Below are positions 49,296 to 54,685 of a stretch of DNA of 64,000 bases, one piece after another; the stretch's first letter is position 1; each line of letters starts with the position of its first letter. The translations under genes were made by a program, and so were the position numbers. The notes beneath the pieces are model-generated. The model was not told the DNA's origin, ran no database searches, and worked only from the letters and a program-made list of their open reading frames with translations. This DNA is from Opitutales bacterium. Its GTDB lineage: Bacteria > Verrucomicrobiota > Verrucomicrobiia > Opitutales > PNEW01. The stretch covers positions 384,001 to 448,000 of the forward strand of contig CBDANS010000005.1 in NCBI GenBank assembly GCA_965197745.1, read 5' to 3'.

Positions 49296-50613
49296 TGGTC
49301 GTGACCACGAAAACTGGGACAGTTGAAAAGTTAGTCTGGGTAACCTAGAAAGGACTCAGACAATGAAAGGCAAAAGATACACGACCGAAGAGAAAATACG
49401 GATGCTGCGGCAGGCGGACAAAGGGAAAACGATCCTGGAAGCATGCCGCGAGAACAACATTAGCGAACAGACTTTCCACCGCTGGAAGCGTGAGTTTGGG
49501 ATGATTGATGTCGACCAGGCCAAGCGGATGAAGGAACTCTTTGAAGGAGAACGCGCGGTTAAAACGGATGCTGGCGGACAAGCTGCTGGGGATAGAGATC
49601 CTGCAGGAGACCCTCGAAAAAAAACTGTAAGCCCTGGGCACAAGCGGCAAGTGGCAGAGAGACTTGTGGCTCGGGGCCAGTGTTCGATGCGAGCGGGGTG
49701 CCGGTACTTTCGGCTGCACCGTTCCACCTATGCGTATAAGGCGAAGCATCCGGATGCTTGGTTAATGAAACTGAAGGCGGCAGTAAGGCGGTTATCACGG
49801 CAATATGCCAGGTGGGGCTATCCGAAGATCACGAAGCTGTTGAAAGACGAAGGCTGGGAGGTGGGTAAACGTCTCGTGCAAGGTCTACGACGCGAACTGG
49901 GCTTGGCGATCCCCCAACGCAAGCCAAGACGTCGGGGCAGGGGTGTTTCCACCGGGCTGCCGACCAAGGCCGAACATCCCGGCCATGTTTGGACCTGGGA
50001 TTTTATCCACGATAAGACGGTCCGCGGTGGCAGTTTAAAAATGTTGACCGTGCTCGATGAGTACACCCGCGAGTGTCGAGTGATCCATGTTGATCGCCAT
50101 ATCAATGCGGAAACGGTGCGCGGTATCATGCAAAAACTGCTTGCCCGTCATGGGCCGCCACAATATATTCGCAGTGACAACGGTTCCGTTCCGAGGAGCG
50201 AAGCGACGACATGCGAAGCCATTCATTGAAAAGGAATTGAGAGCCTGGCTAACTGCGATGAAAATCAAAACCCTCTATATCGAACCAGGAAGCCCTTGGC
50301 AGAACGGATACATCGAATCGTTGCATGCCCGTTTTCGCGAGGAGTGTTTAAACCGTGAACAGCTATGGACTTTGACCGAAGCCCGCGTGGTGATCGAGGA
50401 CTGGCGCTGGCTTTACAATAATGTCCGACCCCACCGCAGCCTCGGCAATATCACCCCACGGTGCTTCGCTGAAGACATTAATACCGAAGGCTTGGGCTCC
50501 ATTCGGGCTACGCCCTCATTGCGCCCAAGCCTTGACTTCCTCTACCAACTTAACTTCAACATTAACCTCTCCAGACTAACTCTCTCGGTGGACCAGTTTA
50601 CGTAACCCGATCA
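49296..50613 (+). mobile_element. IS3-family (IS407-like) insertion sequence, degenerate
   Basis: TG...CA ends with ~44-bp imperfect TIRs (TGGTCGTGACCACGAAAACTGG...GTTAGTCTGG vs TGATCGGGTTACGTAAACTGG...GTTAGTCTGG); orfA HTH; A-run slippery site ~49617-49624; orfB DDE (WTWDF, SDNG, IES, FREECL); no flanking direct repeat seen. Confidence 0.92.
49363..50605 (+). pseudogene. IS3 transposase orfAB with +1 insertion (~49540) and 31-bp insertion (~50188-50218)
   Basis: Removing one T restores ...KELLKENARLKRMLADKLL..EKKL*; removing 31 bp restores SDNGSPFIEKEL. Confidence 0.8.
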
Positions 50614-51307
50614 CCTTAACTAGGAAATTCCGATTTCAAATAAATATTAAACTGAGACACGATCGACCCCTCGATATTCTGATGATCAAAGACGGAACTC
50701 TTATAGGATAGAGGAATCAGTCATGCTACTGGCCGATGACTTAAAGATGGTTTCACAAGGACATTTTTATCCTATCTTATCCTATAAGATCATTCGATTA
50801 TAAGAGACTACACCCCTATTACCTGTATTGAGCTTTGCAGGAAATGCATGTCATAGTCCTTGATTGAGTATTGGTTCAGTCCACTGTATTCTCAATTGCA
50901 ACTGATCGCTTTCGGGATATGGGGATGCCTTTTCTTTCAAAAAACAAGCAGGAAGAAACAGGGGATAGAATGAAGAAAATCCTTAACGACAGACGACAGG
51001 AAAAGCTCTCTTAATGATTGTCAGGAATTATCCTGATATAATTAGTTAAATCGATGCCGGACAAAAAAAATACTGACCTTTAAATTCCAGATATGTCCGA
51101 ATTGGACATTGATGGATAACAGTCTGTTAGCTTAAATATATAATTTTTAAATATAAAGTTAAAGTTTGCTAAAGATTTGCTAATTATCATTCACTTTGCT
51201 GTATTTGACTGCATTTTAGTGCATTTTTAAAATTTCATAACGTACTTAGGAATAACAACTAGAGAAACAAGTTGAAATTGAATGAATGTAGATGCACGGT
51301 TATAACA

Positions 51308-51332
51308 GGTTCGACTCCCGCCACCTCCACCA
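51308..51332 (+). other. 3' fragment of tmRNA (ssrA) or tRNA-Ala; att-like island boundary
   Basis: GGTTCGACTCCCGCCACCTCCACCA: T-loop plus acceptor 3' strand with U70 (Ala identity) and CCA; the 5' half of the T-stem and the rest of the gene are absent. Confidence 0.75.
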
Positions 51333-51333
51333 G

Positions 51334-51739
51334 CCTTCGCCATTGGCGAGGGCTGCCACGTCGACTTGTCAAGCCATAGTTCTCGCGCGTAAGCGAGTTG
51401 GGACGACGGCTGAAGCTCGCTAGAGCGAAGACGAGCTTTACGGTACAAACGTACCATTCTCTACGGCTACGGCTTGGCAAGCCAGCTAATCATTAAAATA
51501 AAAATGATCCCCTTCGCCATTGGCGAGGGCTGCCATGTCGACTTGTCAAGCCATAGTCCTCGCGCGTAAGCGAGTTGGGACGACGGCTGAAGCTCACCGA
51601 GCGAAGACGGGCTTTACGGTACAAACGTACCATTCTCTACGGCTACGGCTTGGCAAGCCAGCTAATCATTAAAATAAAAATGATCCCCTTCGCCATTGGC
51701 GAGGGCTGCCACTTCGACTTGTCAAACCATAGTCCTCGC
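51334..51739. repeat. Tandem repeat, ~2.3 copies of a 176-177-bp palindrome-rich unit
   Basis: Units start at 51334, 51511 and 51687 (CCTTCGCCATTGGCGAGGGCTGCCA...); near-identical copies. Confidence 0.95.
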
Positions 51740-51859
51740 ATTTTAGCAAAAAATAAATATACGTTTATGCGAAGCCTGACCCCTTCTATGGGGAAAATAG
51801 TCAAGCGTGTAAAAATGTCAGTGCATAACTTGTTTAAGTTTCGTTGTTTAAAATAAATT

Positions 51860-52060
51860 CAGGATCGTCTCCTCTGATCGTTCACGAGTCTTAAGACTCG
51901 GATTAACCTGCTATCCGTGCATCACTTAAAGTGAGCACCCTGTGACATTTCCAATAGACGTGTCTAAATCAGAGGAGCAAGCGCTGCCCAATCTTTCAAG
52001 GACGGTATCCTTATTTAAAGAGACACCAGGGGTCAGTACGGGTCATTGCTCCGCTCCAAA
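51860..52060 (-). ncRNA. Predicted bridge/seek RNA in the 3' non-coding end of the IS110 element
   Basis: Two stem-internal-loop-hairpin modules; loop segments match the insertion site (CUGACCCCU, AAAG) and partly the donor junction (AUGUCA, AUAGcAG); RNA ends approximate. Confidence 0.75.
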
Positions 52061-52094
52061 AATGTTTCTTTTTTAGCTTCTCGTTGGCACCTCC

Positions 52095-53183
52095 TTAAGG
52101 GTTGATGGGGTTAAGTTGCAAGCCCAGTGCTTTGGCTTCCAGGCGACCGGTCTGGATCCGCCACCAGTCCACGGCAAACTGCCGGGCCAGGGCCACGATG
52201 ATCTTTTTCTTACGCGCTTTCGTCAGCTTCAAATCGCACAAGTGACGCTCCCACTTTTTAATCGCGTAATAGTCGGGCTGATACACTAACAGCCGCCACA
52301 CGCACTCGATGAGCAAATGGCGTAAGCGACGGTTGCCATGTTTATTGATCGGGCCCTGGAAACGCCGCTGGTTGCTACTGTCTTCACTGGGGCACAATCC
52401 GGTGTAGCTGCCGATCTGGCGGCGGTTTTTGAAACGCTGCCAGTTGCCCACCTCCCGCTCTAAGAGAATGCAGGTCATTTTGCCCAAACCAGTGGGCAGT
52501 CCTTCGGGAGCCTCGGCCTCAATCTTCTTGGTTAGATTCTTGAGCTCCTCATCGATCGCGAGGATGATCCTCCTTAACGGTTCCAACAGCTCACACACCG
52601 TGGGCGGCAGCTGCGCTCGGCAGCGCTCCCACTTGCGGCGGTTCCACCACGGCCCCCGCAGTCGTCCCCCATAATACATGACCTGGCTTCTACCCTGTGC
52701 GGCCAGCCGCTGGCGCTGTCTCATCATACTCTGGCGTTGTCGACTCACACTGCGTTTGCGCTCCTGCTCTTCGCTCGGGACGTAGACCACACTGAAGGCT
52801 TCACGGTTACCGTTCACATAGCGGTCCAAACAAAGGGCCATTTGATGGGCATCGCGTTTGTCCGTTTTGACTTTTTTCCCATACTCGTCCCAGTCGCGCG
52901 GGCGTATCACGTAGTTCTGCACCCCCAGTTGTTTTAACTGTCGATGCAGGCTGTAGCCAAACGGTCCGGCTTCATAGCAGCTGACTATCTGCTGGGCTTC
53001 CTTTACTACTTGCTGTTCTATCCATTTTAGAAACGAAGGGGGACTGAATCGGCGGGGCGCTTTCGGGGTGCCACCGTCTACCATCATAACCACTACATAG
53101 CGGTCGATATGGACATCAATCCCAAGCTTGATTACTTCGGCTTTTGTTTTAACTTCTTTTGTTGATGACGTGGGTTTTTTCAT
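52095..53183 (-). CDS. IS110-family transposase/recombinase (362 aa)
   Basis: RuvC-like DEDD: GIDVH, CYEAGPFG, KTDKRDA; Tnp domain YTGLCPSEDSS (catalytic Ser), INKHGNRRLR; ATG 53183 lies inside the element end, whereas the 53408 start runs through flanking repeats. Confidence 0.93.
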   Translation of the reverse strand: MKKPTSSTKEVKTKAEVIKLGIDVHIDRYVVVMMVDGGTPKAPRRFSPPSFLKWIEQQVVKEAQQIVSCYEAGPFGYSLHRQLKQLGVQNYVIRPRDWDEYGKKVKTDKRDAHQMALCLDRYVNGNREAFSVVYVPSEEQERKRSVSRQRQSMMRQRQRLAAQGRSQVMYYGGRLRGPWWNRRKWERCRAQLPPTVCELLEPLRRIILAIDEELKNLTKKIEAEAPEGLPTGLGKMTCILLEREVGNWQRFKNRRQIGSYTGLCPSEDSSNQRRFQGPINKHGNRRLRHLLIECVWRLLVYQPDYYAIKKWERHLCDLKLTKARKKKIIVALARQFAVDWWRIQTGRLEAKALGLQLNPINP

Positions 53184-53262
53184 AGGGTTGTCAGGGTTTG
53201 TGATTCGCTCACCCCTGACAATCCCCATGTCATCTTTTGACTCTTTCTGGTCACTAGTCTTT

Positions 53263-53368
53263 TCCCGACACCCGAACCCCGAACCCTGTCCCGAGTCCCG
53301 CGGCCACGGGACGACATCTTCCACCCTGACACCCGAACCCTGAACCGTGAACACTGAACGGTGACACC
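53263..53368. repeat. Degenerate heptamer tandem repeats (CCCGAAC/CCTGAAC type)
   Basis: cccgaca cccgaac cccgaac ... cccgaac cctgaac cgtgaac actgaac. Confidence 0.8.
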
Positions 53369-53422
53369 TACAAGCTTGACTCCATTCTTCTTTGCAGTTC
53401 CATAGCAAAAAAGGTCTAATAA

Positions 53423-54685
53423 GTGAACCTCTCTGAACTGCAAGCTAAAGCTACACGACTGGAACGTGAGCTGCAGGAGACCCGCAATCTCCTGGCATTG
53501 ACCATCGACCCCGAGGCCGTCACTGCAGACCTCGCCCGCACTCGAGCCTATGCATTCGATTCCGTAAAGATGCCCGTTGAGGATGTGGTAGCGGGGTGTG
53601 CCGATTCACTCGATCGATACGGTTTCTGTGTCGTCGACCATGTGATACCATCCGACGAGGTGGACGCCATTCGCGAGGAAGTTATGGCGGCAGATGATAC
53701 TGCCAACCGCAATATTCAGGGCATTAAAGACCTGTTTAATCAAGAGGGGGCGAACGCCGAGGAATTACTTAGCGGCAAGGCCGCGGCAAACAACGTGGAG
53801 TTAAGGCGAGTGCGCAGGGTCGGGCATCCTCCCAAACCTCCCAACAACATTATCTGGATGCCCCAGTACGCCCGGCATCTCGCCAATCCGGTAATTACCG
53901 CTGTGGCACGCCACGTTCTCGATGACCATCTTCGAATCGCGTCGTTGCATAACCGTTGCATAAAAAGCGACGATGCATTTATCGAGAATAATGGAGCAGA
54001 CGAATTCAAGAAAATGCGAGGTTCGGATAAGCGCGGCTGGCACACAGACTGGCCCCACGACCTTTCAGCTTACGGCAATAAAGACCCCAATAATAATGTC
54101 GGTTGCATCCGCCAGCCCTGCCCCGACGTAACCATGTGCCTGGTGATGATCTGGTATCTAACCGATGTCGATGAAAATTCGGGGGGCACGTGGATCGTGC
54201 CGGGTTCGCATAAGGACAAGCGGAATCCACGGGGTCCGAACGATGGTATTTCGGTTACCGCGCCCATTCCCGGCGATATGCAAGTAACCGCGCCAGCGGG
54301 GTCTGTCTATATCCAGGATTCGCGTTGCTGGCACGCGACTGCCAGGCACAATCCAAGTGGTCGGGAGAGGGTTGCGGTGGTGAATCGCTGGTGCCCCTGG
54401 TGGTTCTCCGTCGACGACTTCGCCCCAGGAGACAAGTACAATGTCTACCACTTATGCCGTCCTCTTAACCATGCAGAGTATCTGGCCCTGCCCCCTGATC
54501 TGCAACCGTTGATGCGGCATCTCTGTCCCGATGAACGTGACACCTTGCAACAGCCGGTGCTCGATCGGGCTGAAGCAGCTCATGCACGCACGCTGTGGGG
54601 ATTTCAGCAAGAGGAGGAAAATCCAGAATCCATGCAACATATCAACGCGCATATCAAAGTGCCGGTGGTGCCTTTTAAGTGTTAG
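53423..54685 (+). CDS. Phytanoyl-CoA dioxygenase (PhyH)-family Fe(II)/2-oxoglutarate oxygenase
   Basis: LDRYGFCVVDHVI, WHTD (HxD), YLTDVDENSGGTWIVPGSH, AGSVYIQDSRCWH, R. Confidence 0.88.
   Translation: MNLSELQAKATRLERELQETRNLLALTIDPEAVTADLARTRAYAFDSVKMPVEDVVAGCADSLDRYGFCVVDHVIPSDEVDAIREEVMAADDTANRNIQGIKDLFNQEGANAEELLSGKAAANNVELRRVRRVGHPPKPPNNIIWMPQYARHLANPVITAVARHVLDDHLRIASLHNRCIKSDDAFIENNGADEFKKMRGSDKRGWHTDWPHDLSAYGNKDPNNNVGCIRQPCPDVTMCLVMIWYLTDVDENSGGTWIVPGSHKDKRNPRGPNDGISVTAPIPGDMQVTAPAGSVYIQDSRCWHATARHNPSGRERVAVVNRWCPWWFSVDDFAPGDKYNVYHLCRPLNHAEYLALPPDLQPLMRHLCPDERDTLQQPVLDRAEAAHARTLWGFQQEEENPESMQHINAHIKVPVVPFKC

Follow-up and report, generated by a model that had tools for sequence, protein, structure and literature searches.

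An IS1111-type element of the IS110 family in an Opitutales genome, with a putative guide RNA that matches its insertion site in a REP-like palindrome

The window analyzed here is a stretch of 64,000 nucleotides from the genome of an Opitutales bacterium (contig CBDANS010000005.1, positions 384,001 to 448,000), and at 51785-53235 it holds a recombinase gene followed by a long non-coding end. The question raised by this locus is whether the non-coding end encodes an RNA that directs the recombinase to the very site in which the element stands. A sequence-only reading had proposed that it does and that the guides can be read directly from the DNA. We conclude with high confidence that the segment is an IS1111-type member of the IS110 family of insertion sequences (IS), that is, an RNA-guided DNA recombinase element. 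The features that carry this conclusion are listed below in the coordinates of the window.

51785..53235, minus strand: the complete element, 1451 bp in length, including the core dinucleotide once (at the left end); its limits follow from paralogous target repeats that are uninterrupted
52095..53183, minus strand: recombinase gene, 362 amino acids (aa) by translation
51862..52061, minus strand: putative bridge/seek RNA, about 200 nt in two domains, with a terminal helix of 5' GGAGCG with 3' CGAUCC, defined by an alignment of 14 homologues (alignment A1)
52028..52036, minus strand: putative 5' target guide CUGACCCCU, pairing with the element-sense top strand (core AG plus right flank GGGTCAG)
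52004..52027, minus strand: inner hairpin of the target loop (helix P3), 52027-21 with 52010-04, seven pairs of which two are G-U
51993..51996, minus strand: putative 3' target guide AAAG, equal to left flank AA plus core AG and pairing with the bottom strand

The core dinucleotide is AG in element sense (the minus strand) and CT on the plus strand. In this copy the 5' loop strand (52028-36) is identical at nine of nine positions to 51776-51784 (CUGACCCCU against AGGGGTCAG), and the 3' loop AAAG (51993-96) is the reverse complement of CTTT at four of four positions, the core lying within both; each match was read back from the sequence as it had been proposed. An alternative explanation is that such guide-like matches are a coincidence and that the 3' end is just the untranslated region or terminator of an ordinary transposase gene. 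Mononucleotide shuffling produced a 9-nt match somewhere in the 41-bp rejoined site, on either strand, in 257 of 5000 cases, the fold energy of the non-coding end is unexceptional, and an Rfam scan of 51000-54000 (E up to 1) placed no family on the RNA, its sole hit being a snoRNA-like chance match inside the coding sequence (21.9 bits against a gathering threshold of 46), all of which would suit that explanation. A 9-mer anchored at the core, however, arose in just 1 of 5000 mononucleotide shuffles. Taken alone, this sequence therefore offers moderate evidence beyond chance.

The decisive support for the predicted guide function is comparative, and comes from covariation in the RNA helices, covariation of guides with flanks and the uninterrupted copies of the target repeat. 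For the guides we used 85 homologous RNAs, composed of the 14 of alignment A1 and 71 added ones, and in each two segments were compared with the element's own flanks, namely the 12 nt that precede the inner hairpin and the 8 nt ending in AG ahead of AUUG; in scoring the 5' guide, one extra U before the hairpin was allowed (guides ending in CUU), and the controls were run under the same rule. Among the 70 elements with at least 10 nt of right flank, contiguous matches of the 5' guide counted from the core reach at least 8 nt in 45 and at least 9 nt in 40. The summed matches over all elements are 550 against a shuffled-flank mean of 407 (0 of 10000 shuffles as high); since kin share guides, the fairer figure is that for one element per class, which for 17 classes of 5' guide is 144 against 67 (again 0/10000). 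Differing targets, namely GGGCCAC, GAGGGGAG, GGCTTC, GCCGCGTG, GGACGGCG and GCTCCAC, are each matched by the element's own guide. The 3' guide matches over at least 4 nt in 64/71 elements, with a score of 313 against 256 for shuffled flanks (0/10000), or 33 against 21 for one element in each of eight classes (0/10000); by class, the matches are AAAG 49/54, GAAG 5/5, GTAG 3/3, CAAG 2/2, ATAG 2/2, TTAG 1/1, TAAG 1/2 and AGAG 1/2. The check for covariation of guides with flanks that the sequence-only reading had suggested thus came out in its favor. The match of these loop columns in each homologue to a flank of its own, which differs from those of others, together with the covariation of the helices, leaves the coincidental explanation with almost no credence in our view. 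The core of the earlier proposal, an IS110/IS1111 recombinase with a 3' non-coding RNA that matches both sides of the site around a CT/AG core, is one on which protein family, RNA and guide covariation agree.

The polarity of the guides requires a correction. The sequence-only reading had placed them as in IS621, the 5' loop strand reading the left target in the orientation of the IS110 group, and on the plus strand the 5' strand does read as the left target with the core, and the 3' strand is complementary to the core with the right target. IS621 itself is so described (PMC11208160), its 5' guide corresponding to the bottom strand and its 3' guide to the top strand. This placement arises from describing the element on the plus strand. 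Because gene and RNA both lie on the minus strand, the long guide in element sense reads the flank by the right end: the 5' guide would pair with the top strand on the right-end side, and the short 3' guide with the bottom strand on the left-end side, an order inverted relative to IS621, as reported for the IS1111 type. According to Siddiquee, Pong, Hall & Ataide (2024), the IS1111-type seekRNA is encoded 3' of tnp, and within it the segment that matches the top strand precedes the one that matches the bottom strand; an RNA in this location and sub-terminal repeats are likewise IS1111-type features (PMC11187229). The question is a matter of reference frame, and a true IS621 polarity is very improbable here.

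A conserved stretch of 170-200 nt follows the gene in every homologue in which the region is present. Alignment A1 gives it an architecture of six helices, in which a terminal helix joins both ends of the RNA, a target domain is composed of a basal helix, an internal loop and the inner hairpin, and a branched donor domain follows; the earlier account had ended the RNA at the target loop, missing this second, putatively donor-binding domain. Of 535 cells at 39 pairs, 88.4% are paired, and 30 of the 39 pairs show compensatory change; none of 500 shuffles reaches any of these measures, and sliding the partners by 1-3 columns leaves 35-46% paired. This covariation, which is the structural check that had been called for, shows a predicted fold of two domains closed by the terminal helix. 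Within it, the inner hairpin (52021-27 with 52004-10) is present as first described and, as the third helix of A1, is 77.9% paired among homologues, with compensatory change in three of five pairs. The 7-bp stem GGAGCAA/UUGCUCC (52052-46 with 51980-74), previously proposed to enclose the loop, can form in this copy but is not in the register conserved among homologues. A local helix closing the target domain (A1 columns 5-10 with 85-90) is possible, with compensatory change in 1/6 pairs; as the main closure it was rejected, having less covariation than the long-range helix.

These competing closures can be combined in a model that we put forward as speculation and consider unlikely, in which the RNA would adopt two folds through a CUCC tract (A1 columns 87-90) that switches partners. 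In a short 'seekRNA' form, CUCC would pair with the 5' end of the RNA and close the target-binding domain alone; in a long form it would pair with GGAG near the 3' end and build the donor-binding domain, while the termini of the RNA close the whole molecule. When the long transcript is processed, the RNA would then pass from a bridge between donor and target to a target-only seeker. The 14-sequence alignment accommodates all three helices, with compensatory change in 3/5 and 6/7 pairs for the long form and in 1/6 for the short form. If true, this model would give the long seekRNA a role, which Siddiquee et al. leave open.

The protein is that expected of such a system. Translation of the minus-strand open reading frame (ORF) 53183-52095 returned the 362-aa DEDD/Ser recombinase that had been proposed, and Pfam, NCBIfam and the predicted fold agree on its identity. 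It matches PF01548 (DEDD_Tnp_IS110, the N-terminal RuvC-like domain; E 2.6e-9) and PF02371 (Transposase_20, C-terminal; E 7e-16), and scores 170.6 bits, above the cut-off of 140, with NCBIfam model NF033542, 'IS110 family RNA-guided transposase'. Residues D23, E71, D108 and S270 are invariant across 25 aligned homologues and D120 is conserved in at least 90%. S270 is the serine of a conserved GLCPxExSS sequence, here GLCPSEDSS, which fits the G-x-x-P-x4-S motif and is followed by N, not G. A phmmer search of the protein sequences of the PDB gave no match at E <=0.01, so that a fold search was needed to reach IS621: the top 10 Foldseek matches of an AlphaFold2 model (predicted local distance difference test, pLDDT, 85.5; predicted template modeling score, pTM, 0.70) are to IS621 (8WT9, 8WT6) and ISCro4 (9T56), with E-values of 6e-11 to 7e-10, template modeling scores of 0.49-0.57 and 17-20% identity.

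The extent of the element rests on its termini and on the copies of its target, for which the following features are needed.

53222..53235, minus strand: left end, with a 7-nt extension AGATGAC (core AG plus 5 nt), then the sub-terminal inverted repeat ATGGGGA
51785..51794, minus strand: right end, composed of the sub-terminal repeat TCCCCAT and then AGA, an extension of 3 nt whose final base (51785; T on the plus strand, A in element sense) is unusual
53187..53220, minus strand: 5' leader hairpin with arms TTGTCAGGG ... CCCTGACAA, stopping 2-5 nt 5' of the start codon here and in homologues

A 3-nt right-end extension is a feature of the IS1111 group. The 7-bp left extension is likewise named for that group (PMC11187229). 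Read in element sense, the locus runs from left flank ...CAAA through core AG, ATGAC plus ATGGGGA, the gene, the 310-nt non-coding end and TCCCCAT plus AGA to core AG and right flank GGGTCAGGC, and homologues have the same layout of extensions and sub-terminal repeats. The CT at both ends (51783-84 and 53234-35), the repeats on the plus strand (ATGGGGA at 51788-94, TCCCCAT at 53222-28) and the roughly 310 nt of non-coding DNA 3' of the gene (52094-51785, against about 52 nt on its 5' side, 53235-53184) were all found as the sequence-only reading had given them. Removal of the element with one CT restores CCCCTTTT, which is the sequence of 19 uninterrupted genomic copies, and this places the ends at 51785 and 53235, subject to the ambiguity that the shared core leaves; these paralogous repeats also fit the claim that the joined flanks represent the empty site. 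The suggested search for other copies and empty alleles had a mixed outcome, since the paralogous repeats fit the rejoined flanks but the genome holds a single insertion, its one full copy, and the contigs of four runs contain no empty allele at the same locus. Over 51400-53600, none of the contigs of these runs (X1, X3, X4, X7) skips the element or contains a joint between right and left ends, and as contigs drop rare forms this has no bearing on activity. A loose contig end at 51782 (X1, X4) was considered as an empty allele and rejected, being a paralogous repeat copy with five differences. The leader hairpin has a consensus fold in 15 homologues that keeps five pairs, two of them with compensatory changes, on arm sequences that vary by clade; this hairpin may mask the translation start in read-through transcripts.

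A bridge RNA should also recognize the ends of its own element, and two strands of the branched domain are candidates for this role.

51943..51948, minus strand: putative 5' donor strand AUGUCA, complementary to left-end positions 4-9 (TGACAT, 53232-53227)
51905..51916, minus strand: putative 3' donor strand GGAUAGCAGGUU, invariant in A1 columns 146-157, whose AUAGCAG equals the right-end ATAGC of relatives plus core AG

The 5' donor columns follow the left end: AGATGAC occurs with ..(G/A)UCA.. in nine elements, AG(A/T)TAAC with ..AUA.. in 64 listed rows and AGATGCC with ..AGCA.. in one. On the 3' side, GGAUAGCAGGUU is uniform across the collected RNAs, but the loci were picked by its first 11 nt; this 11-mer is present at 16/16 genome-contig loci that hold the region and at 71/80 metagenome loci. 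That the putative donor-binding strands match the element's own joined ends is only partly shown, given the imperfect pairing of the 5' strand and how little the ends vary.

Several observations weigh against the interpretation of this locus as a working RNA-guided element. The 5' guides of 13/70 homologues have no more than five contiguous matches, in most cases with a single mismatch or an indel of 1 nt where the G/C run adjoins the core, and the 3' guide contributes just two specific nucleotides past the core. The 310-nt end folds no better than shuffled sequence (z = -1.06, with 19/100 shuffles at least as stable), and helix P2 has two non-standard pairs in this copy (A1 columns 15-80 and 16-79). 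The 5' donor strand is complementary to the left end over only 6 nt, and this copy's own right end, ATAGA+AG, matches the donor sequence AUAGCAG at 6/7 positions, the mismatch falling on the base adjacent to the core. Finally, the genome (seven contigs, 4.45 Mb) holds one full copy while about 29 other target half-sites stand unoccupied.

Some of these points bear on a different history, in which the element is of the same kind but is an immobilized relic, inherited vertically at this locus, with a right end that no longer matches the donor strand of its RNA. Among right ends found by the pattern CATAG[CA]AG, CATAGC occurs in 73/74 and CATAGA in this copy alone, so that all 73 others differ from it, while the RNA keeps AUAGCAG. 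In contigs of three studies the element occupies this same position. One of them, from run X4 of another study, covers 51714-53142 of the insertion and has G at 51785 (in element sense the canonical C); the X4 contigs also have an extra G after 52618 that would shift the frame of the recombinase, as well as T>G at 52634. The single full copy is accompanied in the genome by one gene fragment (aa 20-188), and the empty half-sites would fit a relic too. Against this history, the 362-aa ORF is open with all catalytic residues kept, and the six RNA helices and both target guides are intact. We regard the relic as a possible, though somewhat unlikely, account. The description of the element as intact accordingly holds for ORF, catalytic residues, RNA helices and target guides, but not for the right-end base 51785 nor in view of the sole full copy; with its last right-end base mismatched to the donor strand, this copy may be slow or unable to move, and its present mobility is uncertain.

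What the guides would recognize is a repeated sequence, of which one part flanks the element.

51736..51784, plus strand: flanking target, the right arm and loop of a palindrome resembling a repeated extragenic palindrome (REP), ending GCCTGACCC plus core CT

Beyond the opposite end of the element, the sequence resumes with TTTGACTC (53236-53243). The palindrome is about 70 bp long and consists of arms AAAAGGGGTCAGGCYTCGCA, an AT-rich loop and the inverse arm. In the genome the 11-mer CTGACCCCTTT is found at 30 places where 1.85 would be expected, and its four-T form at 19 where 0.51 would be; six near-perfect palindromic doublets are present, one of which folds at -24 kcal/mol as DNA. The sole Y1_Tnp gene of the genome (PF01797, RAYT-like; C6:163380-163706, locus L117, a 199-aa open frame) has inverted copies of GGGTCAGACTGCGAAT on its two sides, at 162757 and 163796; this motif is related but not identical to the target repeat. 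Within the sequence covered around the homologous loci, a Y1 gene is present in 9/104, several times within about 70 nt of the element's right end. The natural target is predicted to be the stem base of a REP-like palindrome with some 30 genomic half-sites. The repeat copies, together with a putative association with Y1 genes, make the target REP-like, as it is for ISPa11, ISPpu9 and ISPpu10. REP-targeting elements of the IS110 family were reportedly described by Tobes and Pareja in 2006.

The same repeats have other neighbors. A second IS of 1580 bp (C7:46902-48481 plus 11 copies on C6 and C7) is present in 12 copies that are about 99.6% alike; its terminal repeats are GAATGGCGTTAAGATAAGGG, and its minus strand has an open frame of 422 aa. 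We take it, on impression, to be an IS4-like DDE element. Its copies adjoin CTGAC motifs of the REP-like repeats with an apparent 9-bp duplication, and one copy abuts a GGGTCAGACTGCGAAT copy beside the Y1 gene, so that a second, unrelated IS seems to favor these repeats. The left flanks of homologous loci L013 and L018 have, immediately beside the element, sequences that nearly repeat the target (AAAGGGGTC...), which may be tandem REPs or traces of an earlier event.

Relatives of the element are scattered and distant. The gene fragment in the genome (C6:564471-564975, L032) corresponds to aa 20-188 of a related recombinase at about 80% aa identity and is without ends or RNA; a REP-like palindrome (C6:564172-564228) is located about 245 nt away. 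A scan of one genome per species gave ten loci, 56-65% identical, in metagenome-assembled genomes labeled Verrucomicrobia, Terriglobales and Aminicenantes. In a phylum sample of 401 genomes, nine, this one counted, have a match at E <=1e-40, and one of them carries four identical copies plus a fifth, different element. A metagenome scan returned 185 relatives, of which 80 were kept at 57-64% identity, and the best relatives in a tblastn search of 72,556 plasmid records are 27-34% identical; one E. coli plasmid match that was examined carries no IS name. Across genome contigs, phylum sample, metagenomes and plasmids, no relative above about 65% aa identity was found. Four of the homologous loci (L016, L018, L019, L021) have an extra conserved stretch of about 380 nt between gene and RNA, and L013 has a similar stretch after a broken RNA; this stretch may be a passenger or a nested small element.

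How the recombinase and its RNA would be expressed is suggested by the two ends of the element, which supply the halves of a putative promoter.

51799..51804, minus strand: -35-like TTGACT in the right end, which in a circle junction would lie 17 nt upstream of TGACAT

In 74 elements the right-end box is TTGACA in 58 and TTGACG in 12, compared with TTGACT here, and among 65 homologous left ends the -10-like half at positions 4-9 is TAACAT in 57, TGACAT in seven and TAACGT in one; the spacer in the circle junction is 16-18 nt in 66/74 elements. A promoter scan of the integrated copy gave one site where 1.0 is expected, which makes no case for an internal promoter. The putative -35/-10 layout matches the junction promoter described for ISEc11 (PMC11187229).

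We propose the following mechanism. Judging by these conserved sequences, the element would excise as a circle in which right end, core AG and left end abut, bringing TTGACT to 17 nt from TGACAT, and the junction promoter so formed would transcribe the recombinase gene together with the RNA of about 200 nt downstream on the same strand. This RNA, folded into the two domains that covariation supports, would pair through its 3' guide AAAG with the bottom strand (AA plus core), for which complementarity and, in homologues, covariation with the flank are observed. Its donor domain would recognize the element through AUAGCAG, which matches the terminus of the right end plus core, and AUGUCA, complementary to left-end positions 4-9; part of this is borne out, as set out above. 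With strands that match the element's ends, the RNA would bridge circle junction and target. By homology to IS621, a tetramer of the DEDD/Ser recombinase would then exchange strands at the AG/CT core with Ser270 as nucleophile, and insertion would be oriented and without duplication.

The surroundings of the element are themselves rich in repeats. Two overlapping ORFs with HTH_Tnp_1/rve and rve_3 domains lie at 49363-50605, 1.2 kb from the element, and look like an IS3-family element in its usual two-frame arrangement. A 176-bp tandem repeat (2.3 copies, 96% match) occupies 51334-51739 and runs up to the start of the REP-like half-palindrome; contigs of other runs have skips of 50-58 nt inside it. 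On the other side, 53250-53400 is G+C-rich, with short CCCGAAC-type repeats around a small palindrome, GTCCCGCGGCCACGGGAC; here other runs have a 7-nt deletion at 53297 and a 61-nt skip.

The element is fairly divergent within a known kind. To call it an uncharacterized ortholog, as the sequence-only reading did, is fair at the level of its clade, but the RNA-guided mechanism has been in print since 2024; the NCBI family model already names such proteins RNA-guided transposases, and nothing changes in principle. Its value is that of a natural example from an under-studied host group that comes with a ready comparative set, since 85 RNAs with at least 17 natural guide classes on one scaffold and one AG/CT core make visible which positions of the RNA are free and which are fixed. 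Such a set would be useful for trying the clade as a compact programmable recombinase (362 aa plus about 200 nt). The covariation also speaks for a donor-binding domain in the 'long seekRNA' of IS1111-type elements.

Bridge RNAs have been predicted for 93% of catalogued IS1111 elements, and it is with this group that the comparison is closest. With ISEc11, ISPa11, ISKpn4 and ISPst6, as described in PMC11187229, the element shares a DEDD/Ser transposase, a long downstream non-coding region, sub-terminal repeats and a 7-nt left extension. The seekRNA elements of that paper further resemble it in inserting without duplication (predicted here), in a top-strand match that lies 5' of the bottom-strand match and overlaps it at the insertion point, in natural re-targeting among relatives and in a circle-junction promoter (putative here), and ISPa11 likewise targets a REP. 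The element differs from them in its distant protein, as the identity of its plasmid relatives illustrates, and in having N after the conserved Ser, where that paper gives SG, TG and occasionally TA. The bridge recombinases IS621, IS622 and ISCro4 (Durrant et al. 2024, PMC11208160; Hiraizumi et al. 2024, PMC11208158) have the same recombinase fold and a two-loop RNA, with guides of about 9 nt and about 4 nt that both include the CT/AG core and a second loop for the element's own joined ends (putative here). In contrast to these, with which its protein shares 17-20% identity, the present element has its RNA 3' and not 5' of the gene, reversed guide polarity, putative donor strands set in a multi-branched domain and longer sub-terminal repeats. 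Finally, ISPpu9, ISPpu10 and ISPa11 (PMC12288879; bioRxiv 10.64898/2026.03.19.712850), which differ in repeat family and host group, share with this element insertion into a repeated extragenic palindrome (REP-like here) at a fixed position and orientation, predicted in the present case.

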